Below are positions 805 through 22,856 of a stretch of 64,000 bases of DNA, piece after piece. The notes beneath the pieces were generated by a model. The model saw only the letters and a list, made by a program, of their open reading frames with translations, was not told where the DNA came from and did not search any database. This DNA comes from Isurus oxyrinchus. Lineage: Eukaryota. The stretch's first letter is position 1; each line of letters begins with the position of its first letter. The DNA is taken from positions 96,100,001-96,164,000 of the forward strand of contig JANJGN010000017.1 in NCBI GenBank assembly GCA_026770705.1, read 5' to 3'. The position numbers and the translations under genes are program-made.

Positions 805-931
805 GTATAGCAGACCAACTGGCTACCCAGATGATTGTATCGCAGTTTTTGACCATGAGAATTGTCAATATCGGGTCCACAAGAAGAATGATACTTCTGT
901 TGAATGTCCAGTGTATGCCAGTGTTGGGTAA
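805..931 (+). CDS. MSMB: Beta-microseminoprotein-like gene, copy 0: terminal coding exon only (upstream exons lie outside the window)
   Basis: Acceptor ttttccag|G, then YSRPTGYPDDCIAVFDHENCQYRVHKKNDTSVECPVYASVG*. This matches the PxGY..C..(8)..C.Y.V..K.D....C pattern of the MSMB last exon. AATAAA follows at 936-941. Confidence 0.85.
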
Positions 932-5339: not shown

Positions 5340-5611
5340 TATTTTGAAGAAGAGAGGAGGTGTCCTTTGTATTGTGGTCTTTACTCACTGACTGACATTT
5401 CCACAGTCATTGCCCTCAGAATCAGGGTGAATATCCTCGCCGGTGAGTGGACTTGAGTTCCAGCCAATGGTTGCTGCTGACGTGGCCATTGCTGGGCACC
5501 ATGAGGATTTGAACTTTGTAACCTTGAAGCTGATGAATAATAATCTACACCAGCCAAACAGGACAGAAATTCCTCTCTTGGTGACTGTAAAGGTGTCTCG
5601 TTGGGCTGAGT
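5340..5611 (+). promoter_or_regulatory. Putative proximal promoter and 5' UTR of copy A (homologues precede every copy)
   Basis: Non-TE segment conserved in all units directly upstream of the exon 1 ATG. It has CCAAT near 5464 and an AT-rich TATA-like element (gaataataat here, gaataaaaat in copies B-E) about 75 bp before the ATG. Confidence 0.45.
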
Positions 5612-6284
5612 ATGGTATGTTTGAGTGTGACTCAGATTGTGTTTGTACTTGTGAGGGATTATTTCATCTGGGAACATGTTGCTGGTGAACCTATTTGCAT
5701 TGATACTTGTATTTGTTACAGGATGTTCTCCTGCATTGATAAGAATGTATATTTTTTGGGACTAAGCAGTCACTTTACAGCAGGGGTGAGGAACCCTCGA
5801 CCCGGAGGCTGGATCCAGCCCCTTGTACTTTTTCATCCGGCCCGCTGAGTTTTTCAAAGCGCGGTCTCACCAACCTACCCGCTACTCCCTCGAGTACCTG
5901 ATGCGCTCTGAGCCAGCTGCCGCCATCTCCTGCTGCCTCAGCCTTGGCCACAGTCTGCAGAAGCCCAGGCTCTGTGGAGAGTGTCAGGGGCAAGATCTAG
6001 GAGCAGGAGGGCAGGGACAGGAAGCTGCCGGCTGCTGATCGGGTGGTGAAGTGTGAGTTAGCCGGGACAGGGGAGAAAGGGAGCAGCTCACCCAGCACCA
6101 TCGGCGGCTCACCCCCCCCCCCCTTATCCTTCCAACTCCATTGGTGTCGCAGGACAGGGTTTCAGCTCCTGCAGAGTGAGGGAGAGGCCCAGGCTCCTGG
6201 CCCAGGTGTAGCCTCTGACTGGGAGTTGGCCAGATGGTTGGACTGTTGAGTCACTGCACTGGTTTGGGGGTGACACAGAATAGG

Positions 6285-6320
<36 letters not shown>

Positions 6321-9300
6321 CAGAGTGGGAAAGGAGAGGGAGAGAGAGAGAGATAGTGGGAAATGAGAGGGAAAGAGAGAGAGGCAGAGTGGGAAAGGAG
6401 AGAGAAAGACAGTGGGAAAGGAGAGGGTGAGGGAGATGAGAGATGGGAAAGGAGTGAGAGAGCAAGGGAGAGAGATTGGGAAAAGAGAGGGTGAGGGAGA
6501 GAGAGAGAGTGGGAAAGGACAGAGAGAGAGAGAGCGAGAGAGAGAGTGGGAAAGGAAAGCAAGCAAAACGTTGAGCTGAATCTCAGCAGTACTGTGATTG
6601 AGACAGAGAAACTGCTTCTCATGAAGGGAAAGCAAACACAGGCATCGCATTCAAGCAGTGGGTGGGTTGAACGTTTCTATATTCTCTCTTAAAAAGATAA
6701 ATGAAGTTGCTTATTATGTGTGTGGGCCCCCGACTGATTTGGTCTATGTGTGAATAGCCCTGAATAAGAAAAGGTTTTCCCATCCTTGCTTTAGAGGTTG
6801 GTCATTAGACACTTTCAGCAGCAAGAGCAGGGAGGTGTGAGGCATCGCTGGAAGACACAATAATTGAATTCGTGTCTCCGAGGTGCCCACAGGCCTGTTC
6901 TGGAGTAAAGAATCTGTAAAGGAAGCAGTCTGGCGTGGGAAGCACATTCCACCGGCCAGCCGAAATGGGAGAACAGGATACCGAAATGGCCATGGAGCTG
7001 AACCAGTTAACAGTGAGCAATAAGTAACCAGCTCGTTTAAAGCATTCAGCACCAGCGAACAAATCCATGTGGAGAAGGGCATCTAACACGTGGGAACACC
7101 ATCTTCAGGTCACACACCATCCTGACTTGGAGTTTGTTGTTCCTTCACTGTCACTTGGTCCAAATCCTGGAACTCGCTCCCTCACAACACACATTGGTTT
7201 AGATGCAACACAGGGACTGCAGCAGTTCAAGGAGGTGGCTCAACATCACCTTCTCAAGGCAATAAGGAATGGGCAATAAATGCTGGCCCAGCCAGGATGA
7301 TTTTTTCAATCAGAAATGTCAGACTGGCTCAGGAGGCCTTCTGGTTCTGGACTCATGAATTGAGACAAATGTTTAGGTAGAACAAAGGAAACTTTGTTCT
7401 GAACCAGACCACACTGTCACTGAATGGGAGCACTGGGTACAGACAGCGGTTGTCGCTGAACAAGGTAATGACCCTTCCCCAGAATTGACATCCATCAGCT
7501 TGAACAGTAAGCTCCAAATGTTTCAGAAAATGGGAATGAGAAACTTGATTGTGAACTCAGTTTCATATCCTGTGAAAAGTGTGTGAGGAGGAAATGTAAA
7601 TCTGAGATGTCCTGAATGTGAATCATGTTTCCCTGGGATTTGAGCTCCTACTTTGTTTGGACACATTTCTGGATGTTGTATCATGTCTTTCAGTCTCCAC
7701 ACCCGACTCTTGGTGTGAGTTATGTTTCTCTCTCAGACACATCCACTTGAAAAAGCAATAGACCTCGGTTGTACTATTTGTGGACAGCCTTTGTTATCCA
7801 GTTTTCAGCAGGAACGCATTAAATATTCAAGAATAAGAATAGAAAATCCTGTTATTTCCTGGGTTATCTTCTGGGTTCCAGAAATCTATTCCTGGAGTCT
7901 CCATACCAACACTGGAGGATTGGGAACCCCTCCCAGTAATGCTTAAGTCTCATACAGATGTCAAGTCCCATATACAATTCTGTTAAGGTTTTGTATCACC
8001 TTGTGCATCCCCAAGGTAAACAAGTGATGTGTGAGGATGGATATGTTTTTGTAGCTTCAGGGTCAAGAAATGAAGCCCCCTGTTCCGCTCCCTTTTTAAG
8101 AGAATGTCTGAACTACCTGTTTATCAGCTAATCCCTCAATCCACTCCACAAACAATCCCAGTTGTTTTTGGACGACTCCCGGTACTTTATTGACCATCAC
8201 TCTGATTGATAACTTCTATCTGATTGGGAATTAGTCTAATCTAAGTGACATGACCAAGTTCCTCAACATGTTCCCTCTTTATTCCCTCCCCCACCCGGAC
8301 CCCACACCAACCCCATAGAAACTCATCTTGTGCCTTACTCTGCTGCTCCTGGCTGTTGAACATGGAGAATCTTACTGTTTCGCCAAACCTCGCAAACGTA
8401 AGTACCAAACCTTTGCCAACTTTCCATTTAGATCTGGGGTGAAAATGAGCTAAACATAAGAACTGAGGCTGAATGTAACCTCCACCCAATTGATGAATGT
8501 TGTCAATGGCTATGGAACCCAAATCCAGCATGAGAGAGGGATAGTCCCAGCCTCACATAACTGCTCCAGGCCACATGAATCCTCAGGGATTGCCTTACAC
8601 AGTCCCCCTCCCCAAGGGTCCAAGAGGGAATAGGCCAGTATCCTGCCTTGTCAAATTCACCAGCTCCTGCTCCATGGGCCAAATCAGACGCCAGCAAGTA
8701 TCCAGCCCATTCCTGTCCACCAACCCACCCCCATCCAGAAGGAGTTGGACAGGGGTCACTGGATGGATACAACCCCCTTTGCCACTGGCAGTCATCGTGT
8801 TCCGAGGTTCATGGCTGTGAAACTCTCAGGCCCAGGTCTTCTTGGATATGGAACTTGGCTCTTCCCAAGTCCACAGAGCTCACCGATGATTCAGCCGACC
8901 AGGCAGTTCTTCAAACTCCCAAATGTCAATACAAGCCCATGGTACCTCTGCAGTCTTTGATGAGGCATTGACAGACCAATCTCAATGTCTTTCTCTCTCT
9001 CTCTCACTCTCGCTTCTGGAATTCCAGACTCACCAAACTGCAGGGATGATGTTGATGGCACCTGGCATGAACCTGGTGAAAGCTGGATAAACTCTGACTG
9101 CATGAGATGTTCGTGCTTGAGTGAATCGATAAACTGCTGTTCAACGTAAGTGATTCTCTGCCGTTGTAGCTCAAATAGCCCTTTTGTGTTATTCTGCACT
9201 GATCTTTCTTATTGAAGCACAAAGTGGATTTGGGATGAGCAGCCAGACAAGGAGTCGTTTCCGTCATCTTGTTATAATGATAAAAAGAAGCAATCACTCA

Positions 9301-11431
9301 CAAAGGATTGGGTAACCACGTTGTGGCTTTATTTTGTGAGGCTAGACATCTGGGTACATTTATACTAAGGTAAAAAGTTTGAAAATATCAGAGCTGTGCT
9401 GTTCTCTAATCATAGGCAAAAGTGAAACTAAGACCAGATCACATGACATTCTTCCCTTCCAGTGATGTCATGTTGCTACCTCTTAAAGAGATATTACCAC
9501 AAATTCAAAGGTAGTTTACAGATTGGGAAACACTGCAGGATTGGTGGTTTCTGGTTAGCGGAATGAACAGAACACATGACTTCCTCCTTCTCATTTCCAG
9601 ACATGTTAGCACCTGAGGTATCACCCAAGCCCCGTGCACAGCACCAAATTTTGGGATACAAGCAGTCGATAAAATGGTGGCAGGGCTCAGACTGCGATGG
9701 GGAGGGAGAGTGAGGAGTGGGAGAACATTCCAATGTGGAGATGCCCCACTGTAAAAGAGCGTGTAGATGAGGAGAGGGCGGAGCTGACGAGTGAGAGGAG
9801 ATGAAGAGAGAGCAGAGAACAAGAGAGAGCGGAGACTAAGAGAGAGCGGCGTCGAAGACAGACTGGAGACGGAGAGTGGAGACAGGGAGAGAGTAGAGAT
9901 GGAGATAGAGTTTGGATGAGAGAGGGTGCGGAGGGAGAAAGTGGAGATGAAGATAGAGTGCTGTTGAAGAGAGTGCAGATAGAGTACTGTAGAGAGAGTG
10001 GAGATGCAGAAAGGACGGAGAAGAAGAGGCGAGGGGAGGGTGCAGATAAAGGGAGAGTGTAGATTTAAAGAGGGTGGGATGAAGAGATTGGGGATGAGGA
10101 GATAATTTAGATGAGAGAATCTGCAAATGAAGAGAGAGATATGTTGAAGAGAGGTTGGAGAGGAAGAGAGGTAGGAGATGAAGAGAGAATGGAGAAGAAG
10201 AGAGAATTGAGATGCAGAGAGAGTGGACATGAAGAGAGAGCAGAAATAAAGAGAGGGTGGAGATGAAGAGAGATTGGAGATAAAGAGAGGGTGACAAAGG
10301 TAATAATGTAAATGAGAGAGTGTGGAAATGAAGACAGAAAGGAGATGAAGAGAGAATGCAGTTGAAGAGAGTGCAGATTGAGAGCTTTAGAGAGAGTGGA
10401 AATGAAGAAAGGGTGGAGATGAAGAGAGGGTGGAGATGAAGAGAGAGCAAAAATTAAGAGAGGGTGAAGATAAAGAGAGGTTGCAGATAAAGAGAAGGCG
10501 GACATACAGAGAGTGCGGCTCAGGTAATAATGTAGATGAGAGAGTGTGGAAATGAAGAGAGAAAGGAGATGAAGAGAGAATGCAGTTGAAGAGAGTGCAG
10601 ATAGGGAGCTTTAGGGAGGGTGGAGATGCAGAGAGGGTGGAGATGAAGAGGCGAGGAGAGAGTGAAGATGAAGAGAGAGAGGAAATGAAGTAAGGGTGGA
10701 GATGAAGAGAGGGAGGAGATAAAGGGAGGGAGGAGATTAAGAAAGGGTGGAGCTGAAGAGAGAGTGGAGATGAAGAGAGGCTGGAGATGAAGAGAGAGTG
10801 GAGATGAAGAGAGGCTGGAGATGAAGAGAGAGTGGAGATGAAGAGAAGGTGGAGATGAAGAGAGGGTGGGGTTAAAGGGAGGGTGGAGATGAAGAGAGAG
10901 TGCAGATGAAGAGAAGTTGGAGATGAAGAGAGGGTGGAGATAAAGTGAGGATGGAGAAGAGAGGGTGGAATTGAAGGGAGAGTGTAGATGAAGAGAAGGT
11001 GGAGATGAAGAGACGGTGGAGATGAAGAGAGGGTGGAAATGAAGAGAGGGTGGAGTTGCAGAGATACTTTTTGATCTGCTTCTCTTGTCAGCCCACATGG
11101 GAGGTCAGTTTTCTGCTGCTGCCTCTCTCCAATTGGCTACTCAGGAACTGCTGGGAAGATATGGGGGAAACAAGGAATTTATCCAAAGGCTGTCCACCAC
11201 CCTTTGGGAGAAAATTATGAAATTGTTCAGTGAAAACAATACAGTGCAAATTTAACCCTTACTCTTGGGATCATTCTGATGCTTTACTCACCTGTATTTT
11301 CCAGGTATTTCAGACCAACTGGCTACCCAGATGATTGTATCGCAGTTTTTGACCGTGCGAATTGTCAATATCGGGTCCACAAGAAGAACGATGCTTCTGT
11401 TGAATGTCAATCGTCTGGCAGTGTTGGGTAA
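5612..11431 (+). CDS. MSMB: Beta-microseminoprotein (PSP94)-like gene, copy A, intact, 4 exons, 108 aa
   Basis: Exons: 5612-5614 (ATG|gtatgt), 8319-8397 (atag|..|gtaagt), 9028-9145 (ttccag|..|gtaagt) and 11305-11431 (ttccag|..TAA, then AATAAA). Phases 0/1/2 join in frame to give MKLILCLTLLLLAVEHGES-YCFAKPRKHSPNCRDDVDGTWHEPGESWINSDCMRCSCLSESINCCSTYFRPTGYPDDCIAVFDRANCQYRVHKKNDASVECQSSGSVG. It has a signal peptide, 10 mature Cys including CxxCxC and CC, and an ATG-only first coding exon as in mammalian MSMB. The exon 1 call is the least certain part. Confidence 0.9.
5781..6788. mobile_element. Non-autonomous hAT (Charlie-like) DNA transposon in intron 1
   Basis: Ends CAGGGGTGAGGAACC and GGTTTTCCCATCCTTG form imperfect terminal inverted repeats. 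The 8-bp TSD is CTTTACAG/CTTTAGAG. It contains an internal GA-rich tract. Confidence 0.7.
7090..7300 (+). mobile_element. CR1-type 3'-tail fragment in intron 1 (progressively deleted in units B-E)
   Basis: Similar to 3905-4120 (ccatcctgactt..ttccttcactgtc..aaatcctggaactc..gggcaataaatgctggcc). Confidence 0.65.
9760..11060 (+). repeat. Purine-rich 17-bp minisatellite in intron 3 of copy A
   Basis: Degenerate GAGAGGGTGGAGATGAA units. They generate the S/L/H/P-rich spurious minus-strand ORFs. Confidence 0.9.
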
Positions 11432-11435
11432 TCAG

Positions 11436-11441
11436 AATAAA
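11436..11441 (+). terminator. Polyadenylation signal of copy A (same position in all copies)
   Basis: AATAAA begins 5 nt after the stop codon (TAAtcagAATAAA) in all six copies. Confidence 0.6.
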
Positions 11442-11597
11442 AGCATTTAATTTCCAATATAAAACCATCAGCTTCATTCTTGATGCAAGTACCATGGGAG
11501 AATGGGAGCCTTGCTTCCTCCATGAAACATCAATATCACAATGAAGATATTTCACAGTGATTTCATTCTGAAACCTTATCTATTATTTCAACAAGTC

Positions 11598-11599
<2 letters not shown>

Positions 11600-11684
<85 letters not shown>
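11600..11684 (+). repeat. (TG)n microsatellite, about 42 units (shorter versions near 22860, 36473, 50066 and 63655)
   Basis: Directly visible. Confidence 0.95.
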
Positions 11685-11686
<2 letters not shown>

Positions 11687-12055
11687 ATGGTGGGGAGGGA
11701 GAAAGCGCGCAGAGTAGACAGTGTGAGTGTAAAAGAGAATATACAAGAGTGTGCAAGAGAGAGAGTGTGAGAGAGAGTATGCCAGCGAGAGAGTGCGCCA
11801 GCAGGAGTATGTGTGGGAGAGCGTGTGTATACGAGGAAGTACATGTGGATTTGAAACACCATGGCTGTTGTAAGCTACAAGGCCCAATGAGTTACATTTA
11901 AAAAATATTTAGCCGGATTAAGTGGGTCTTTCCTGAACCAATCACAAAGGACGTGAAGAGGGAAAGAAATCCAAGCCAGAAAGGTCTTTAAAGAAGTTGC
12001 TGACACCCATTCACATTGTATCTGGGCACATTGTCTCTTCATGTTCCTTTCTTCA

Positions 12056-12391
12056 GGAGGTCTTGTGGCTCAGTGGGTAGTGACCCTGCCTCTGAGCCCG
12101 AAGCTCCCAGGTCAATTCTTAGCCAGGACTTGACGGCCAAGAAAGGTGTGGTGATAAAGGAGCCAAACAGGTCAATCCTACGACCGGTAAATCCTTCTAA
12201 CCAGTGTATGGCAGGTGGCAAGAGTGGGAGAGTCTCCTGGGCAGCCATGTTGGGCCTAGAGTGATGCCCCTCGAGCTATAACCTCTGGATTCAGGCTGGT
12301 GACCTGTTCCAGGAAAAATAAGCAGCGGAAACAGACGTAAGCATGTGCTTTGTCTGCCTCCTGTGTCTCCAGGTGCAGGGAGACAGTATGA
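12056..12391 (+). mobile_element. tRNA-derived SINE (co-duplicated copy)
   Basis: Homologous to 1521-1856 with the same flanks. Confidence 0.7.
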
Positions 12392-12419
12392 GTTTCTTTC
12401 TTCACCAAACGCAGGGAAT

Positions 12420-12775
12420 CACATCCACCAATGACTCACAATAGCAGCAGTGTGTACCATCTACAAGGTGCACTGCAGGAACTCACCAAGGCTCCTTAAA
12501 CAGCATCTTCCAAACCCGTGACCACGACCATCTAGGAGGACAAGGGCAACAGACAGATGGGAACATCACCAACTGAAGGATCCCCTCCAAGTCAATCACC
12601 ATACTGACTTCGAAATATATCACCGTTCCTACACTGTCACTGGGTCAAAATCCTGAAACTCCCTCTCTAACAGCGCTGTGGGTGTCCCTAAACCACTTGG
12701 ACTACGGCGGTTCAAGAAGGCAGCTCACCTCCACCTTCTCAAGCGCAATTAGAGATGGGCAATAACAATGCTGGC
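12420..12775 (+). mobile_element. CR1 LINE 3' remnant (RT removed by a unit-specific deletion of about 1.9 kb)
   Basis: Homologous to 3768-4123 and joined directly to sequence homologous to about 1888. Confidence 0.8.
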
Positions 12776-15700
12776 AGCAGTAATTGAAGGTATAGCCTTT
12801 CCTGCTGTCCATCAGGGGTCACATGCTTTCTTGGCGACTCTGACCAATGAGCCCTAAGCGTGGGTAATCCAGGGCGTGTGGTTCTCTAGTTGAGGATCTG
12901 GTTCAAGCATGTAGCTTCTGAAAAGCTCTCTGTAATAAAGTCACAAAAAAGGAAAATGCTGGTAAAACTCAGGAGGTCTGACAGCACCTCTGGAGAGAAA
13001 GTTAGAGTTAACGTTTCGAGTCCGTATGAATCAGTAAGAAGGGTCATATGGACTCAGAACGTTAACTCTGTTTCAATCTCCACAGATGCTGTTAGACCTG
13101 CTGAGTTTCTTCAGCATTTGCTGTATTTGTTTCAGATTTCCAGCATCCACAGTATTTTGCTTTTATCTGTAATAAAGTTATCTGTTTGAAGTAGAAACCT
13201 GTCCAGTACGTCAAGTCATTACATTTGGTGATGAGGGTGAGATAGCTCCGACGCTGCACCTCGCCTTGTGAATGTGAATACATCAGATCTTAAGAAAAAA
13301 AGAAAAGTATACTCACCAGTCATGCCACTCTTCAGCAGAATCGATCCTTATGACGCGACGATGGGAGACTGGAGCCAGTATGTAGAGCATCTTGGCTTTT
13401 ATATCATGGCGAACAAAATTACCATGGAGGAGAAGCAGAAAGCAACCCTTCTGAGTGTATGTGGTGGCAAGACACACAATCTCATCCACGGTCTGATGGC
13501 CCCGAATGTGCCCAATTCTAAGCCCTTTAACGTGTTTGTGGACCTTGTGGACATTCTCAGCCGAAACCATCGGTAATAATGCAGAGATTTAACTCCAGAG
13601 TAAGGGCCCAGAGAAAGTCCATCACAACCTACATAGTGAAGTTGAAGCAGTTGACTGAGCACTGTGACTACGGAGACAAACTCAATGATATGTTGCGGGA
13701 CCGATTAGTTTGTGGAGTTCACAACAACCCCATTCAGTGCCCATTAATCGCAGAGGTCAACGTCAATATGAAGAGCGCTATGGAAATAGCACTAGCTGTG
13801 GAAAGTGCTGCGAGAGACTCACAGGCTTTACAGCACACACAACATGGCGCTGTTCTTCATGTGGGGCAGGAAACTCCGAAAACCAGAGACACAGCAGCAA
13901 AGCGAGAGGCAATCTCTGCTGCTAGAAAAATGAAAAGACCTAGTGGAAGAATTTCACCAATCCCTCCAAGGTTAATCTGTTATACATGTGGCGGTAACCA
14001 CATACCGGACACCTGCACATTCAAGGCGGCAGAGTGCTGTTACTGTCATAAGAAAGGACGCGTAATAAAGAAATGCAGTGTGAAATCGAGACATCCCATA
14101 AGGCAGCAAACCAAAATGATTGAAGTGAATAATAGAACAGAACCTGAGGTTGCCATTACTGACATCAAATCCCTGTAAAATTTCACAGCTGTATAAACTG
14201 AACGTATTACCATCACAATCCAAGTGAATGGGAAGCCACGAATAATGGAGGGAGATAGAGGAGCCTCACCACAGTGGTTGGACAGCACACATTAAAATAC
14301 CTAAATGAAGGTAACTGGCCACTGAATCCAGAGAGAACCACGGCTCAATTGAAGACATACAGTGGAGAATCCATATAGGTAAAGGGCATCACCACAGTAC
14401 CTGTGCCCTATTCAGCAAACAGACAGACCAGCTTCCAGTGATCATTGTGAGAGGTGAAGGACCTAGTCTTCTGGGCCGAGACTGGCTGCAAAATATTACG
14501 CTCAACTGCTCTGAAATATTTCACTTGAGAACAGGAGGAGTTCCTCAACTGTTAAGCAAACACGGCAGTGTATTTCATGATAAATTGGGAGATATAAACA
14601 CTTGCAAGCAAAAATGTATGTAGATTCTCAGGCAACAGCCCATTCTTTAAGGCCAGACCTGTGCCTTATTCCCTAAAGGGGAAGGTGGATGCAGAACTGT
14701 GCTGGTTAGAAAAACTAGGCATTACCCAATCAGTCCAATTTTCAGAATGAGCAGCACCCCTATCGCCAGTGGCGAAACATGACCAAACTATACGCATTTG
14801 CGGGGACTATAGATTGACCGTGAACAACGCAGGCAAACTAGATAAATAACATATCCCGAGGATAGGGGACATGTACACACAGCTAGCTGGAGACAAATTT
14901 TACACCAAACTGGACATGAGCCATGAATTCTAACAGCTAGAGCTGGATAGCACATCTAGATGTGTAATCATCAACACACTCAAGATAAAAACAAAGAAAA
15001 CTGCGGATGCTGGAAATCCAAAACAAAAACAGAATTACCTGGAAAAACTCAGCCGGTCTGGCAGCATCGGCGGAGAATAAAAGAGTTGACGTTTCGAGTC
15101 CTCATGACCCTTCGACAGAACTTGATTTCGAGTCCAAGAAAGAGTTGAAATATAAGCTGGTTTAAGGTGTGTGTGTGGGGGGGCGGAGAGAGAGAGAGAG
15201 ACAGAGGTGCTTGTGTAGACAAACAAGCAGTGATAGAAGCAGATCATCAAAAGATGTCAGTGACAATGGTACAAAAGAACACATAGGTGTTAAAGTTAAC
15301 ACACTCAAGGGCTTATATCAATATATGCACCTACACTTTGGAGTATCGTCTCCATGTGCAATCTTCCAAAGGACAATAGAGAGTCTTTTGCAAGGACTTC
15401 CCCAAGTAATAGCACACCTAGGTGATGTTCTGATCACACGGTCAACTGAAGCAAATATTTGGCCAAACTGGAAGAGATGTTAAGAACATTCTTGGAAGCT
15501 GGTATACAATTAAAGAAAGAGAAATGTACATTCCAAGCACCAGGAGATACTTACCTGGGTCACTGGGAGGATGCCATGGGGTTGTATCCAGAAGAAGAGA
15601 AAGTTGGTGCAATCAAATAGGCATCCTCTCCGCCCAGTGTAACTGAACTCAAGTCTTTTCTGGGCAGGATCAATTATTACAGCCGTTTCTTATCAAACTT

Positions 15701-17895
15701 GTCAACAGTGTTAGCACCATTACGCTTGTTGTTTAAAAAGAACCATCGTTGGTCATGGAATTTGCAACACAAAGAAGCCTTTGTGAAAGTTAAGAGGCTA
15801 TTACAGTCATCATGTTTATTGGTACATTCTGACCCATCAAAAGAATTAACAGTGAACTGTGATGCGTCTCCTTACGCTGTGGGAGCTGTGTTGTCACACA
15901 GGATGGAAGATGGATCAGAAAGACCAATTGGCAACGTCTCCAGAACCCTCTCTGCAGCCGAGAATTAATGTTCCAAATGAGAAAAGGACGGTTTATTGGC
16001 GGTATTCAGAGTGAAGAAATTCCACCAGTACCTGAGTGGACAACATTTCACCATTGAGTTGGACCGTAAACCATTAATGGGTTTATTCGGTAAGGATAAA
16101 GCCATTCTGCCAATAGCCTCAGCAAGAATTCAACTTTGGGCTTTGATATTATCTGTGTATGATTATATCTTTATACATCATCCTGGCTTTCAAATTGCAA
16201 ATACCGACACACTGAGTCATCTCCTGTTACCAGATAGCATTCTACATTCCCCAGTGCCACAAGAAGTTGTGCTTGTACTGAATTTCTTGGATTCTTCACC
16301 TGTGAGCGAAGCAAATTAGGAATTTGGATGAACAGAGATTCAATTTTGTCAAAGGTCTGAGACCTGTTTTTCAAGGGTGGTTGAATTGACCAGTGTCTTA
16401 AGAGATGAGACCATTCCATGCCTGAAAAATAGAGTTAAGTTGTCAACATGGAATCCTGTTGTGGGGATCAAGAGTCCCTTTGCGAGGAGGAGAACCACTC
16501 TTGACAGAGCTTCTCAATGCACATCCAGGTGTATCGAAGATGAAAATACTTGGGCGAAGATGTGTCTGGTGGCCAGGCATAGACAGTGACATTGAAAGCA
16601 TGGTCAAGCACTGGCTCCAGTTTCAGCAACAGAAATTGTCTGTTTCAGCTCCACTGCATCCTTGGGAGTCGGCTGGTCGACCTTGGATTCGGCTACATAT
16701 TGATTATTGGGTACCATATTTTTATTAATCATACATGCAGATTCTAAATGGAAGGATGTGTATGAAGTCAGATCACCAGCGTTGAGTACAACTATTGAAA
16801 AGCTGCGTTAATGTTTTAGTATACATGGCCTACTGCAAGTCATTGTTTCAGATAACGGTACACTCTTTACCAACACAGAGTTTCTGAGATTCATGAGTAT
16901 AAATAGAATCAGACATATTAAACAGCACCATATCATCCCTCATCGAATGAGTTCGCTGAAAGAGCTGTGAAAACGTTCAAATCAGAAATAAAGAGGTTAT
17001 CCAAAGTTACCCTAGCAACTCGAATTTCTTATTTTCTTCTCAATTATTGAACAATGCCTCATTCAACTCTGGGTTCAACACTGTCTGAATTATTGATGAA
17101 ACCCCGCCTAAGTACAAGGTTAAATCTGGTGTTTCCAAACTTAGAGGGGAAGGTAGAGAAGAATCAGAGTAATCAAAAACTGAATCACGACATTCATAGC
17201 AAAGCTCAAAGATTTACTGTAGGTGATACAGTTTTTGTGCAGGATTTTGGAAATGGACCTTGACTGATTCCTGGTACAATTGTCTCAGAAACTGGTCCCT
17301 TGTCCTTCTAGGTGCAAGTGAAAGATCGAGTTGTTTGAAAACATGTGGATCATCATGGAAGGAGAGAGGCATTCCAACAACCAGCTATTCCACCTGTGAC
17401 TAACATCGAACCATTAATCACTGAAGTGTCAGACTGGCTGAAACAGACATAGCCAATGTCTCTGTAGAGTTACCAAACCCTCAACTGCCACTTTCTAATG
17501 GTGGACCTGACACTGCAGTTCCTGATCATGTCGATCCAGTGAAAGAACCTCAAGTGGTAGGTTTACACCGCTCTAATCGAATAAGGAAACCACTTTAGAG
17601 ATGGAATCTTTAGCACCTGACTTATATGAATGTTTATGTTGTGGGATATTCAAACGTTCTCTGTAAATAGGAAGTGTAAAAATCTAAAAGGGGGAGTAAT
17701 ATTGTAACTGAAGTATCATCTTTGCTACTGCCTGTCAGGGGTTACATGATTGCTCTTGGAGATTCCAACCAATGAGCCCTAAGCGCGGATTATCTGGGGT
17801 GCGTCGTTTTCCAGTTGAGGACCTGGTTCAAACATGTAGCTTCTGAAAAGCTCTCTGTGATAAAGTTATCTGTTTCAAGTGAAAATCTGTTCCGT
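12776..17895 (+). mobile_element. Ty3/Gypsy LTR retrotransposon, degenerate, near full length
   Basis: Gag with zinc knuckles (CYTCGGNH, CCYCHKKGR), protease end (LLGRDWL), RT, RNase H (CDASPYAVGAVL), integrase (HPG..KMK, HPWE) and a polypurine tract (AAAAGGGGGAG) near 17686. It has many stops and frameshifts, and the last ~20 bp of the 3' LTR are deleted. Confidence 0.92.
14985..15297 (-). mobile_element. Penelope-like fragment inserted in the Gypsy RT, unit B only
   Basis: A 313-bp insert flanked by the 12-bp TSD AACACACTCAAG (14973-14984 and 15298-15309). The site is empty in units C-E. It is related in sequence to the LTR insert. Confidence 0.75.
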
Positions 17896-18210
17896 GGGCC
17901 AGTGATGCCCATATCCCATGAAAGAATAAAAAAACTATTTGGAAGAAGAGGAGAGGAGGTGTCCTTTGTATTGTGGTCTTTACTCACTGACTGACATTTC
18001 CACAGTCATTGCCCTCAGTATCAGGGTGAACATCCTCGCCGGTGAGTGGACTTGAGTTCCAGCCAATGGTTGCTGCTGACGTGGCCATCGCTGGGCACCA
18101 TGAGGATTTGAACTTTGTAACCTTGAAGCTGAAGAATAAAAATCTACACCAGCCAAACAGGACAGAAATTCCTCTCTTGGTGACTGTAAAGGTGTCTCGT
18201 TGGGCTGAGT

Positions 18211-21200
18211 ATGGTATGTTTGAGTGTGACTCAGATTGTGTTTGTACTTGTGAGGGATTATTTCATCTGGGAACATGTTGCTGGTGAACCTATCTGCATT
18301 GATACTTGTATTTGTTACAGGATGTTCTCCTGCATTGATAAGAATGTATATTTTTTGGGGCTAAGCAGTCACTTTACAGCAGGGGTGAGGAACCCTCGAC
18401 CCGGAGGCTGGATTCAGCCCCTTGTACTTTTTCATCCGGCCTGCTGAGTTATTTCAAAGCGCGGCCTCACCAACCTCCCCGCTATCCCCACGAGTGCCTG
18501 ATGTGCTCTGAGCCAGCCGCCGCCATCTCCTGCTGCCTCAGCCTCGGCCACAGTCTGCAGAAGCCCAGGCTGTGTGGACAGAGTCAGGGCCAAGTTCCAG
18601 GAGCAGGAGCACAGGGACAGGAAGCTGCCAGCTGCTGATCAGGTGGTGAAGTGTGAGTTACCCGGGACTGGGGAGAAAGGGAGCAGGACATCCAGCTCCT
18701 TTGGCGGATCACCCCCCCTTATCCTTCCGACTCCATTGGTGTCGCAGGACAGGGTTTCAGCTCCTGCAGAATGAGGGAGAGGCCCAGAATCCTGGCCCAG
18801 GTGCAGCCTCTGACTGGGAGTTGGCCAGAGGGTTGGACTGTTGAGTCACTGCCCTGGTTTGGGTGTGAGTCAGAGTGGGAAAGGAGAAGGAGAGAGAGAG
18901 GGAGAGAGGCAGAGTGGGCAGGAGAAGGAGAGAGAGAGAGGGAGGCAGAGTGGGAAGGGAGAGCGAGAGAGAGAGAGAGGAATAGTAGGAAAAGGAGAGT
19001 GAGATTGAGTGGGAAAGGAATACAAGAGAGAGAGAGAGAGTGGGGAAGGAGAGGGTGAGAAAGAGAGAGAGACAGAGTGGGTTGGGAGAGAGAGAGAGAT
19101 TGGGAAAGGAAAGCAAGCAAAACGTTGAGCTGAATCTCAGCAGTACTGTGATTTAGACAGAGAAACTGTGCTACTCATGAAGGGAAAGCAAACACAGGCA
19201 TCGTATTAAAGCAGATGGGTTGAACGTTTCTGTATTCTCTCTTAAAAAGATAAATGAAGTTGCTTATTATGTGTGTGTGGCCCGTGACTGATTTGGTCTA
19301 TGTGTGAATAGCCCTGGATAAGAAAGGATTTTTCTATCCCTGCTTTGGAGGTTGGTCATTGGACACTTTCAGCAGCAAGAGCAGGGAGGTGTGAGGCATC
19401 GCTGGAAGACACAATATTTGAATTTGTGTCTCCGAGGTGCCCACAGGCCTGTTCCGGAGTAAAGAATCTGTAAAGGAAGCAGTCTGGAGTGGGAAGCACA
19501 TTCTACTGCCTAGCAGAAATGGGAAAACAGGAGACAGAAATGGCCCATGAGCTGAACCAGCTAACAGTGACCTCACAACACACATTTGTTTACCTACAAC
19601 ACAGGGGCTGCAGCAGTTCAAGGAGGTGGCTCAACATCACCTTCCCAAGGGCAATAAGGAATGGGCAATAAATGCTGGCCCAGCCAGCGATGCACACACC
19701 CTAAGAATGATTTTTTTCAACCAGAAATGTCAGACTGGCACAGGAGGCCTTCTTGTTCTGGACTCATGAATTGAGACAAACAGGTTAGGTAGAACAAAGG
19801 GAACTTTGTTCTGTACCTGACCACACTGTCACTGAAATGGGAGCACTGGGTGCAGACAGCGGTTGTCGCTGTACAAGGTAAAGACCCTTCCCCAGAATTG
19901 ACATCCATCAGCTTGTACAGTAAGCTCCAAATCGTTCAGAAAATGGGAATGAGAAACTTGATTGTGAACTCAATTTCACATCCTGTGAAAAGTGTGTGAG
20001 GAGGAAATGTAAATCTGAGATGTCCTGAATGTGGAACATGCCTCCTGAGGATTCCAGCTCCTAATTTGTTTGGACACATTTCTGGGTGTTGTATCATGTC
20101 TTTCAGTCTCCACACCCCACTCTCGGTGTGAGTTATGTTTATCTCTCAGCCACATCCACTTGAAAAAGCAATAGACCTCAGTTGTACCATTTGGGGACAG
20201 CCTTTGTTATCGAGTTTTCAGCAGGAACGCATTAGGTATTCAAGAATAAGGATAGAAAATCCCGTTATTTCCTGGATTATCTTCTGGGTTCCATAAATCC
20301 ATTCCTGAAGTCTCCATCGCAACACTGAAGGATTGGGAATCCTTCCCAGTAATGCTTAAGTCTCATACAAATGCCAAGTCCCACATACAATTCTGTAAAT
20401 GTTTTGAGCTGAGGTATCACCTTGTGCATCCCCAAGGTGAACAAGTGAATCGATATGAGTTTGTAGCTTCAGGGTCAAGAAATGGAGCCCCCTGTTCCAC
20501 GCCCTTTATAAGAGACCATCTGAATTCACCTGTTTGTCAGCTTATCCCTCAATCCACTCCACAAAACAATCCCAGTTGTCTTTGGATGTCTTCCGATGCT
20601 TTATTGACCATCACTCTGAGTGAAAACTTCTATCTGATTGGGAATTAGTATAATCTAAGTGACATGACCAAGTTCCTCAACATGTTCCTTCTTTATTCCC
20701 TCCCCCACCCGCACTCCACACCAACCCCATAGAAACTCATCTTGTGCCTTACTCTGCTGCTCCTGGCTGTTGAACATGGCGAATCTTACTGCCACAACAA
20801 ATTTCACCCAAGTAAGTACAGCGCCATTGCCAACTTTCCATTTAGATCTGGGGTGAAAATGAGCTAAACATAAGAACTGAGGCTGAATGCAACCTCCACC
20901 CAATTGATGAATATTGTCAGTGGCTATGGAACCCAATTCCTGCATGATAAAGTGATAGTCCCATCCTGACATAACTGCTCCAGGCCACATGAAACCTTCC
21001 CTCAGGGATTCCCTTACACAGTCCCCCTCCGCTAAGGGTCCATGAAGGAATAGGCCTTGTCAAATTAGCCAGCTCCTGCTCCATGGGTCAAAGCTTGGCT
21101 GTTGTGTGCAAATGAAGTCCCGGCCAACAAACTGGCTGAGGCCTCATTGTGGTAAGCACCGAAACAATCCTCCAGCACACTGCCTAAATTCAGACCCCAG

Positions 21201-22690
21201 CAAGTATCCAGCCCATTTCTGACCACCAACCCATCCCCATCCAGAAGGATGGAGACAACCCCCTTTCTCAATGGCAGTCAATGTGTTCCGAGGTTCATGG
21301 CTGTGAAACTCTCAGGCCCAGGTCCTCTTGGATATGGAACTTGGCTCTTCCCAGGTCCAAAGATCTCAGTGATGATGCAGCTGACCAGGCAATTCTTCAA
21401 ACTTCCAAATATAATTGCAAGCCCATGGTACCTCTTCAGTCTTTGATGAGACATTGACAGACCAATCTCAGTCTCTTTCTCTTTCTCTCACTCTCTCTTT
21501 GATTCCCACCTGGAATTCCAGACTCACCGAACTGCAGGGATGAAGTTGATGGCACCTGGCATGAACCTGGCAAAAGCTGGATAAACTCTGACTGCATGAG
21601 ATGTTCGTGCTCGGTTGAATCGATGCGCTGCTGTACAACGTAAGTGATTCTCTGCCGTTGCAGCTCAAATAGCCCTTTTGTGTCATTCTGCACTGATCTT
21701 TCTTATTGAAGCACAAAGTGGATTTGGGATGAGCAGCCAGACATGGAAGTCATTTCTGTCATCTTGTTTTAATGATAAAAAGAAGCAATCACTCACAACG
21801 GATTGGATAACCACACTGTGGATTTATTTCGTGAGGCTAGACATCTGGGTACATTTGTACTAAGGTAAAAATCTTGACGATATCAGAGCTGTGCTCTTCT
21901 CTAATCACAGGCAAAAGTGAAACTAAGACCGGATCATATGACACACATCCCTTCCAGTGATGTCATGTTGCTACATCTTAAAGAGATATTCCAACAAATT
22001 CAAAGGTAGTTTACAGATTGGGAAACATTGCAGGATTGGTGGTCTCAGGTCAGCGGAATGAACGGAACACATGACTTCCTTCCTCTCTTTTCCAGACTTG
22101 TTATCACCTTAAGTATCTCCCAAGCCCCGTGCAGAGAGGGTGGAGATGAAGAGAGGGTGGAGTTGAAGAGAGAGTGGAGTTGAAGAGAGAGTGGAGTTGA
22201 AGAGAGAGTGGAGATGAAGCGAGGGTGGAGATAAAGGGAGGGTAGAAATGAAGAGAGAGTGAAGATGAAGAGAAGGTGGAGATGAAGAGAGAATGGAGAT
22301 GAAGAGAGGGTGGAGTTGCAGAGATACTTCTTGATCTGTTTCTCTTGGCAGGCCATATGGGAGGTCAGTTTTCTGCTGCTGCCTCTCTCCAATTGGATAC
22401 TCAGAATCTGCTGGCGACATTGGGGGAAACAAAAAATTTATCCAAAGGCTGTCCATCACCCTTTGGGAGAAAATGGTGAAATTGTTCAGTGAAAGCACTA
22501 CAGTACAAATTTAACCCTTACCCTTGGGATCATTCTAATGCTTTATTCATCTGTGATTTGCAGGTATGGCAGACCAACTGGCTACCCAGATGATTGTATC
22601 GCAGTTTTTGACCGTGAGAATTGTCAATATCGGGTCCACAAGAAGAACGATGCTTCTGTTGAATGTCAATTTACTGGCAGGGTTGGGTAA
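18211..22690 (+). CDS. MSMB: Beta-microseminoprotein (PSP94)-like gene, copy B, intact, 4 exons, 108 aa
   Basis: Exons 18211-18213, 20733-20811, 21522-21639 and 22564-22690, all with GT-AG introns. Protein: MKLILCLTLLLLAVEHGES-YCHNKFHPNSPNCRDEVDGTWHEPGKSWINSDCMRCSCSVESMRCCTTYGRPTGYPDDCIAVFDRENCQYRVHKKNDASVECQFTGRVG. All 10 Cys are retained and AATAAA follows the stop. Confidence 0.9.
18380..19342. mobile_element. hAT-like non-autonomous element (co-duplicated copy)
   Basis: Same termini; TSD CTTTACAG/CTTTGGAG. Confidence 0.65.
22133..22320 (+). repeat. Shortened 17-bp minisatellite in intron 3 of copy B
   Basis: Same unit; the 5' part has been deleted together with flanking intron sequence. 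Confidence 0.85.
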
Positions 22691-22856
22691 TCAGAATAAA
22701 AGCATTTAATTTCCAATATAAAACCATCAGATTCATTCTCGATGCAAGTACCATGGGAGAATGGGAGCCTTGCTTCCTACATGAAACATCAATATTACAA
22801 TAAAGATATTTCACAGTGGTTTCATTCTCAAACCTTATCTACTATTTCAACAAGTC

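Follow-up and report, generated by a model that had tools for sequence, protein, structure and literature searches.

Diversification of a short, predicted N-terminal strand, likely by selection and gene conversion, in a tandem beta-microseminoprotein array of the shark Isurus oxyrinchus

The proteins of the beta-microseminoprotein family (MSMB/PSP94; Pfam PF05825) have been assigned roles in reproduction, mucosal defense, and toxin neutralization (PMC8167871 and PMC7150969), and the main function of the MSMB protein is still unsettled. Fast, replacement-rich evolution in this family has already been published for primates (PMC1201370), marsupials (PMC3268785), and snakes (PMC7150969). The described genes have four exons with the start ATG ending exon 1, a 19-residue leader, and 10 cysteines, they pair a fast-evolving mature chain with a conserved leader and conserved cysteines, and they occur as lineage-specific tandem copies, with 14 copies in opossum, 3 in chicken, and arrays in marsupials and lizards (PMC3268785). 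The snake genes SSP-1 to SSP-6 of Protobothrops flavoviridis belong to the same family and share its exon plan, tandem arrangement, and 19-residue leader; some SSP copies show accelerated change by KA/KS and by comparison with introns, and their variable N-terminal domain is thought to set target choice (PMC7150969). For primate MSMB, New World monkey paralogs included, site models give a ratio of replacement to silent rates (dN/dS) above 1, and exons are less conserved than introns (Clark and Swanson 2005, PMC1201370; PMC3268785). Here we compare with these systems a tandem gene array of the shark Isurus oxyrinchus, part of which lies in a 64,000-nucleotide stretch of contig JANJGN010000017.1 (assembly GCA_026770705.1, positions 96,100,001 to 96,164,000 of the forward strand). 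This stretch is hereafter called the window; positions are counted within it, and positions beyond it carry the prefix C17.

Judged from its sequence, the array consists of beta-microseminoprotein genes that follow the exon plan, leader length, and cysteine pattern of the family. It differs from the described members in its organization, with 12 units of ~13.6 kb that contain a decayed long terminal repeat (LTR) retrotransposon and mostly pseudogenes, and in that its excess of change is focused on mature residues 3 to 9, in conflict with the tree of the units. We hypothesize that positive selection likely diversified these residues, that short gene conversion likely carried them from copy to copy, and that they form a predicted partner-binding strand, and we put the joint probability of the three at somewhat better than even, about 0.55. 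The finding mostly extends an established family pattern to sharks. It also amounts to a natural experiment, in which near-identical scaffolds differ mainly in the strand predicted to be equivalent to the CRISP-binding one. We found no published treatment of a shark MSMB array, of patch shuffling, or of gene conversion in the family, in a search that most subscription papers lay outside of; one skate sequence appears in the supplement of PMC3268785, and “gene conversion” has 0 occurrences in the accessible text of the SSP paper (PMC7150969). SSPs neutralize the snake's own venom proteins, whereas no venom context was seen for the shark array.

Units of ~12.4 to 13.6 kb, each with a four-exon gene, follow one another across the window, and three DNA searches of the genome returned 12 matches each, all inside one 155-kb stretch. 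These 12 units are Z, A, B, six C units, F, G, and H, among which only A and B are fully canonical. In copy A (all features described here are on the plus strand), exon 1 ends in the start ATG (5612..5614), which a GT donor follows, and spliced contigs of two public runs (X2 and X5) connect position 5614 with 8319, the intron between them having GT..AG ends. Exon 2 (8319..8397) encodes the leader and the first mature residues. Codon numbers start at exon 2, so that a mature residue is the codon number minus 18, and codons 21 to 27 (8379..8397, with codon 27 completed by exon 3), hereafter the patch, are of the F-x-K-P-R-K type in A, a type also present in copy H beyond the window. Exon 3 (9028..9145) encodes the core of the N-terminal domain with its W-x-N-x-x-C motif, and exon 4 is coding to the stop (11305..11431), with AATAAA at 11436. 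In copy B, the start ATG is at 18211..18213 with a GT donor behind it (the exon 1 regions of the two copies match at 98%), exon 2 at 20733..20811, exon 3 at 21522..21639, and exon 4, coding to the stop, at 22564..22690, with AATAAA at 22695; its patch (20793..20811) is of the H-x-K-F-H-P type, as in C and G. Exons 2 to 4 of both copies have AG/GT ends and are open through to the stop. Copy A is spliced, because in runs X1 and X2 the joint 9145-11305 has letters that are specific to A; the RNA nature of the runs, four of the eight listed having been examined and none being recorded as RNA, was read from such GT..AG joints. With the start methionine from exon 1, the leader is a hydrophobic stretch of 19 residues, its cleavage site being placed by analogy, and secretion is predicted.

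The first-pass annotation of this sequence had described accelerated, nonsynonymous divergence of A and B behind a conserved leader, and our recount from the coordinates reproduced its figures: the 19-residue leader is identical with one silent change, replacements occur in 18 of the 89 mature codons and purely silent changes in 3, five replacements and no purely silent codon fall in exon 4, and all 10 cysteines and the W-x-N-x-x-C core are kept. Acceleration between A and B is present in codons 21 to 27, however, whereas the remainder of the mature chain is at the intron level. Base differences amount to 29/267 in mature exons and 198/2303 (0.086) in introns (P = 0.21); exon 3 (11/118) and exon 4 (7/127, or 0.055, below the intron level) are no higher than introns. 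Pairwise omega is above 1, at 2.10 by the Nei-Gojobori method (NG86; Fisher P = 0.175) and at 2.37 to 2.62 by maximum likelihood (likelihood ratio test [LRT], P = 0.13 and 0.088), and with codons 21 to 27 removed it is 1.25 to 1.42, with 19/246 bases differing (0.077; P = 0.72). The neutral expectation is 6.3 to 7.3 silent changes among 29 base differences, and 3.5 were seen (P = 0.045 to 0.22, depending on model and rounding); the lack of silent change in exon 4 is not significant (P = 0.11 to 0.15). Pairwise tests were dropped as proof of selection, since they are not significant, and the positive selection proposed earlier is not borne out by the A/B pair alone, whereas it gains support once more paralogs are included.

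Only codons 21 to 27 exceed chance in the A/B comparison. Here, 10 of 21 bases differ (P = 4e-6 against introns), distributed as 5, 5, and 0 over the three codon positions, and a scan over the coding sequence gives a corrected P of 1e-4 to 7e-4; the codon-position bias has a P of 0.003, or 0.03 with codons 19 and 20 added. In six copies (A, B, C, F, G, and H, with Z omitted because the end of its intron 1 is unalignable), the mean pairwise difference in the patch is 0.277, more than in any of 2578 overlapping 27-base intron windows (maximum, 0.210), and its non-CpG nondegenerate sites change at 6.2 times the intron rate (confidence interval [CI], 3.5 to 9.2). Codon 22 takes five residues in seven copy types.

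The patch also follows a genealogy of its own. The introns give the tree (A,(B,C)),(F,(G,H)), with supports of 88, 100, and 92, whereas in the patch A differs from H at 2/22 positions and from B at 11/22, and G equals C. At each of the eight informative patch sites, A falls with H or with F and H, compared with 10/145 in introns, and the patch topology is rejected by the intron data (approximately unbiased [AU] test, P = 0.0008, both alternative trees entered having one and the same unrooted shape). As the genealogy of the patch conflicts with that of the introns, A likely shares its patch with the distant copy H through short gene conversion, which is the most parsimonious explanation. The shared tract is bounded by A/B-specific sites at −5 and −3 and by H-specific sites at +71 and +78, and these flanking sites limit it to at most ~150 bases. 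Six of the 18 A/B replacements fall in a patch that A shares with H, so that these six did not simply build up after the A/B split. Copy F has an intermediate type of patch and Z a further type. A DNA-type run of another organism has B-type letters at five listed patch positions, which suggests that the B-type patch is the older. In run X2, we also observed a T at window position 8389 in most of the contig depth, together with the A-type base at 8392; this combination occurs in none of the seven copy types and is possibly a patch allele of another individual.

By alignment of the conserved cysteines, the patch is the predicted equivalent of the CRISP-binding beta-1 strand, and codon 22, placed by the human numbering of the first mature cysteine, falls on the position equivalent to human F24. 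Human PSP94 binds CRISP3 via its N-terminal beta-1 strand, with F24 required (PMC8857485); a single binding edge is built from beta-1 together with the C-terminal strand, and SSP-2 contacts triflin by beta-1 (PMC7150914); and the Y-F positions of chicken MSMB3, counted from the first mature cysteine, coincide with the start of the patch (PMC8167871). Given that the patch aligns with beta-1 and that codon 22 is variable, we infer that selection has probably acted on a partner-binding strand. Selection would favor new N-terminal strands in copies of the array, and a conversion tract of ≤~150 bases would give A and H one strand type. By analogy with the described proteins, the products would be secreted two-domain binders with five disulfides, which may dock edge to edge by beta-1 on a CAP/CRISP-type or microbial target, and A and B would then prefer different partners. 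A search for the Crisp domain gave 0 matches, as did its control, and is therefore not counted as evidence on CRISP partners. Binding comparisons among A, B, and H might reveal whether partner choice depends on the strand and might give clues to the ancestral role. In major histocompatibility complex (MHC) class I paralogs, short tracts with binding-site residues are copied between neighbors by microconversion. It is conceivable, if doubtful, that the shark array is an MHC-like generator of diversity, in which the ~20-base tail of exon 2 would be a selected cassette swapped by microconversion, the pseudogenes would be a reservoir, and a 10-residue insertion in H (see below) would act as a spacer; in comparison with MHC class I, the shark material comprises seven copy types from one assembly.

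For tests over more paralogs, codon models (M0 and M1a/M2a) were written for this analysis, and intron blocks read as codons served as the neutral control (10 blocks in four to five frames, giving 50 fits that are not independent). Intron columns at ≤3 positions from a gap were dropped, which left 2605 columns with a mean divergence of 0.0742. The tree-free ratio of replacement to intron divergence in the six copies is 0.61 for the leader, 4.6 for codons 19 to 27, and 1.82 for the mature chain (CI, 1.32 to 2.37), although the intron mean is 0.0795 when gaps are deleted pairwise and some of the columns differ, so that the ratios may be ~7% high. Replacement divergence of the mature chain is therefore above the intron level in the larger set, contrary to what the first-pass annotation had named as speaking against selection; the corresponding ratio for silent sites is 0.66 (CI, 0.26 to 1.19). 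In M1a/M2a comparisons, the LRT statistic is 34 for exons 3 and 4 and 52 to 69 for all codons with seven copy types, and values of 60.6 for the mature chain, 29.7 for exons 3 and 4, and 29.3 for A, B, and H only compare with a maximum of 14.0 among the 50 intron controls. These controls replaced the nominal chi-square P values of the site tests, which are inflated by conversion and uneven mutation. A codon model anchored on introns with a fixed intron tree (patch, 7.5×; exon 3, 1.6×; exon 4, 1.9×) was likewise set aside in favor of the tree-free ratios, as it overcounts where conversion alters the local tree.

The reach of this excess bears on the possibility that selection acted over the whole mature surface, as in primate MSMB, with the patch being only its most visible part. 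In exons 3 and 4, the replacement/intron ratio is 1.50 (CI, 1.07 to 1.99), a value reached by 0.8% of 360 overlapping control blocks, M0 omega is 2.5 (LRT, 7.2 to 8.5), and codons 58, 65, 72, 96, 101, and 105 are variable without CpG involvement. With CpG sites removed, however, nondegenerate sites of exons 3 and 4, outside the N-terminal patch, change at only 1.11 times the intron rate (CI, 0.69 to 1.61), so that an acceleration spread over the whole mature chain, as first proposed, is not supported; furthermore, the ratio for A, B, and H only is 1.39 (CI, 0.84 to 2.02), and exons 3 and 4 of the A/B pair are at the intron level. Unlike that in primate MSMB, the robust signal in the shark array is one short strand, and we consider selection over the whole surface unlikely. 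In the explanation that we favor, the weaker signal at residues 57 to 68 and 101 to 105 may reflect the remainder of the same binding edge.

CpG-touched sites, which account for 14% of the bases in mature exons and for 5% of those in introns and evolve ~4 times faster, would also contribute if there had been no positive selection, with redundant copies drifting under relaxed constraint and CpG-rich exons with few silent sites mimicking a dN/dS above 1. That only A, B, and H look functional among the 12 units and that the pairwise tests are not significant would both agree with such drift. Under relaxed constraint, however, the neutral rate is a ceiling, and yet the patch lies 6 times above it at non-CpG sites; the leader and cysteines are, moreover, fully kept in A, B, and H, and we hold this explanation to be quite improbable. 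A more general caution follows from the same data, as the pairwise dN/dS of ~2 for two tandem paralogs is largely explained by a single, probably converted patch, a scarcity of silent sites, and the decay of CpGs.

Several observations weigh against selection on the patch as we propose it. The patch was chosen post hoc, after inspection. Because it has almost no silent sites, the case for selection rests on the intron yardstick; its own pair dN/dS has a P of 0.07 to 0.08, and the six copies on the patch tree give an omega of 5.8 with an LRT of 3.2, which is not significant. Introns, too, reach 9 to 10 differences per gap-free 22-base window in some pairs, and one intron cluster adjoins an indel-rich repeat. 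The six-copy tests take in the broken or doubtful copies C, F, and G, and 14 of the 50 neutral controls (28%) pass the nominal threshold of 5.99, whence the inflation of nominal site-test P values noted above. Exons 3 and 4 without CpG codons retain an LRT of 14.3 against a control maximum of 12.2 (40 fits), and none of their 23 four-fold non-CpG sites differs among the six copies, which is below the intron rate, is unexplained, and lifts dN/dS. Copy-specific spliced contigs cover A and H but not B, and the selected sites of primate MSMB are dispersed over the surface rather than clustered (PMC1201370).

A further point of this kind is that B carries six private changes at 20819-20826, within 15 bases of the start of intron 2, possibly a multibase mutation beside the patch. 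Such a B-only cluster just inside the intron would fit a patch that is merely older or was mutated in bursts, without selection, either because conversion brought in a strand type from a paralog that is distant, lost, or absent from the assembly or because of multibase mutation at a hot spot near the exon 2 donor. Conversion is evident at the patch, and of the six changed codons, five have their changes at adjacent bases or at the end of the exon, with two changes each in four of these. Third positions should then differ too, however, and none of seven does; F is a steplike intermediate between the two types, Z represents a further type, and no closer donor exists among the 12 genome matches. 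We regard this origin as the least probable of the alternatives and favor positive selection on residues 3 to 9 combined with short conversion.

Regarding the family assignment, exon 3 of A matched beta-microseminoprotein or SSP-2 structures in the PDB as the top 5 of 6 matches (best E, 0.007), and PF05825 scored 20 bits against a single exon 3 in the genome search, below the cutoff of 22. A homologue search with exon 4 as the query returned none, and one with exon 3 returned one of two candidates, the basking shark beta-microseminoprotein-like protein XP_078421558.1 (P0025), which has PF05825, is 74% identical to exon 3 of A, matches 6/6 family structures (E, 5e-11 to 2e-7), and matches A and B at 77 to 85% over the exon 1 region and exons 3 and 4. 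Being without exon 2, it has neither leader nor patch and is silent on the latter. In the basking shark models P0025 and P0026, the exon 1 region (window 5467-5637) is translated in another frame and exon 2 is missing, which probably reflects either an error in the gene models or a form that skips the exon. All 10 mature-chain cysteines are present in A, B, F, and H, and nine in G, in agreement with the ten-cysteine pattern of the MSMB/PSP94 family, and a four-exon gene with a start codon that ends exon 1 is the plan of MSMB/USM and not of MSMP, which has three coding exons (PMC3268785).

Placement within the family was approached through synteny, with FAM21C, ANUBL1, ARID5B, and ANTXRL as markers of MSMB proper and ARID5A and ANTXR1 as markers of USMH/SSP. 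An ANTXR gene located 0.8 Mb downstream of the array is 83 to 100% identical to shark “ANTXR1-like” proteins, and the ANTXR copy on contig C27 is nearer to a ray protein named ANTXR1 (83% versus 69%); this comparison of sequences leans toward MSMB proper. Contrary to this leaning, an NCOA4-type match and one zf-AN1 match sit on C27. The 18 ARID matches are all on contigs other than C17 and C27. An exon of a neighboring gene matches shark proteins at up to 97 to 100%, in keeping with a shark origin. Three of the other PF05825 candidates in the genome were translated and rejected, one being noncoding and two resembling von Willebrand C-type repeats. The SSPs fall in the USMH branch by similarity (PMC3268785).

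Unequal crossing-over would account for the units, most of which decay would then have removed in a birth-and-death process. Of copy Z, a pseudogene with a 1-base deletion in exon 3, only exon 4 (805..931) lies in the window, with the remainder upstream. Copy C1 (33330..36301), a pseudogene and the sister of B, has lost the exon 1 donor by deletion and carries a 29-base duplication in exon 3 and a 1-base deletion in exon 4; two frameshifts and the lost donor are common to the C copies. C2 (46923..49894) and C3 (60512..63483) equal C1 over the 3601 bases compared, and C4 to C6 lie beyond the window. The six C units are 13,589 to 13,593 bases apart and differ by 0 to 1 base per 3601 (window 33330-64000 and C17:96174-96204 kb), which indicates either very recent amplification or assembly duplication. 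The exon 1 donor deletion is common to C (window 30927) and F (C17:96212308), yet the two are nonsisters by introns, and another conversion or crossover is the likely explanation. F and H differ by 0.031 in exon 4 (C17:96217865-96217991 and 96247818-96247944) and by 0.048 at the end of intron 3, compared with 0.06 to 0.09 elsewhere, likely through a further conversion tract. Copy G has an intact frame and has lost two conserved cysteines. In place of its mutated exon 3 acceptor, copy H splices at an AG located 30 bases farther upstream (C17:96244680-96244709): since a contig of run X1 contains exactly those 30 upstream bases, H is spliced with 10 extra in-frame residues, directly behind the patch. 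On its flanks, the array has two family members that are more distant: Y (C17:96084236 and 96087565), whose exon 3 contains a stop, and X (C17:96278553 and ~96280100), in which exon 2 was not found and exons 3 and 4 are open.

The decayed LTR retrotransposon of the A unit occupies 12780..17866, with LTRs at 12780-12941 and 17704-17866 that are 81% alike by self-BLAST and RT_RNaseH and Integrase_H2C2 matches in three of the six frames scanned. The units of A, B, C, F, G, and H contain all or part of the element. Its copies are 89 to 94% alike among units, and because its own LTRs are only 81% alike, its insertion predates the duplication of the units. The 3′ LTR ends ~350 bases upstream of the ATG of B, and this position next to the following gene could bear on its promoter.

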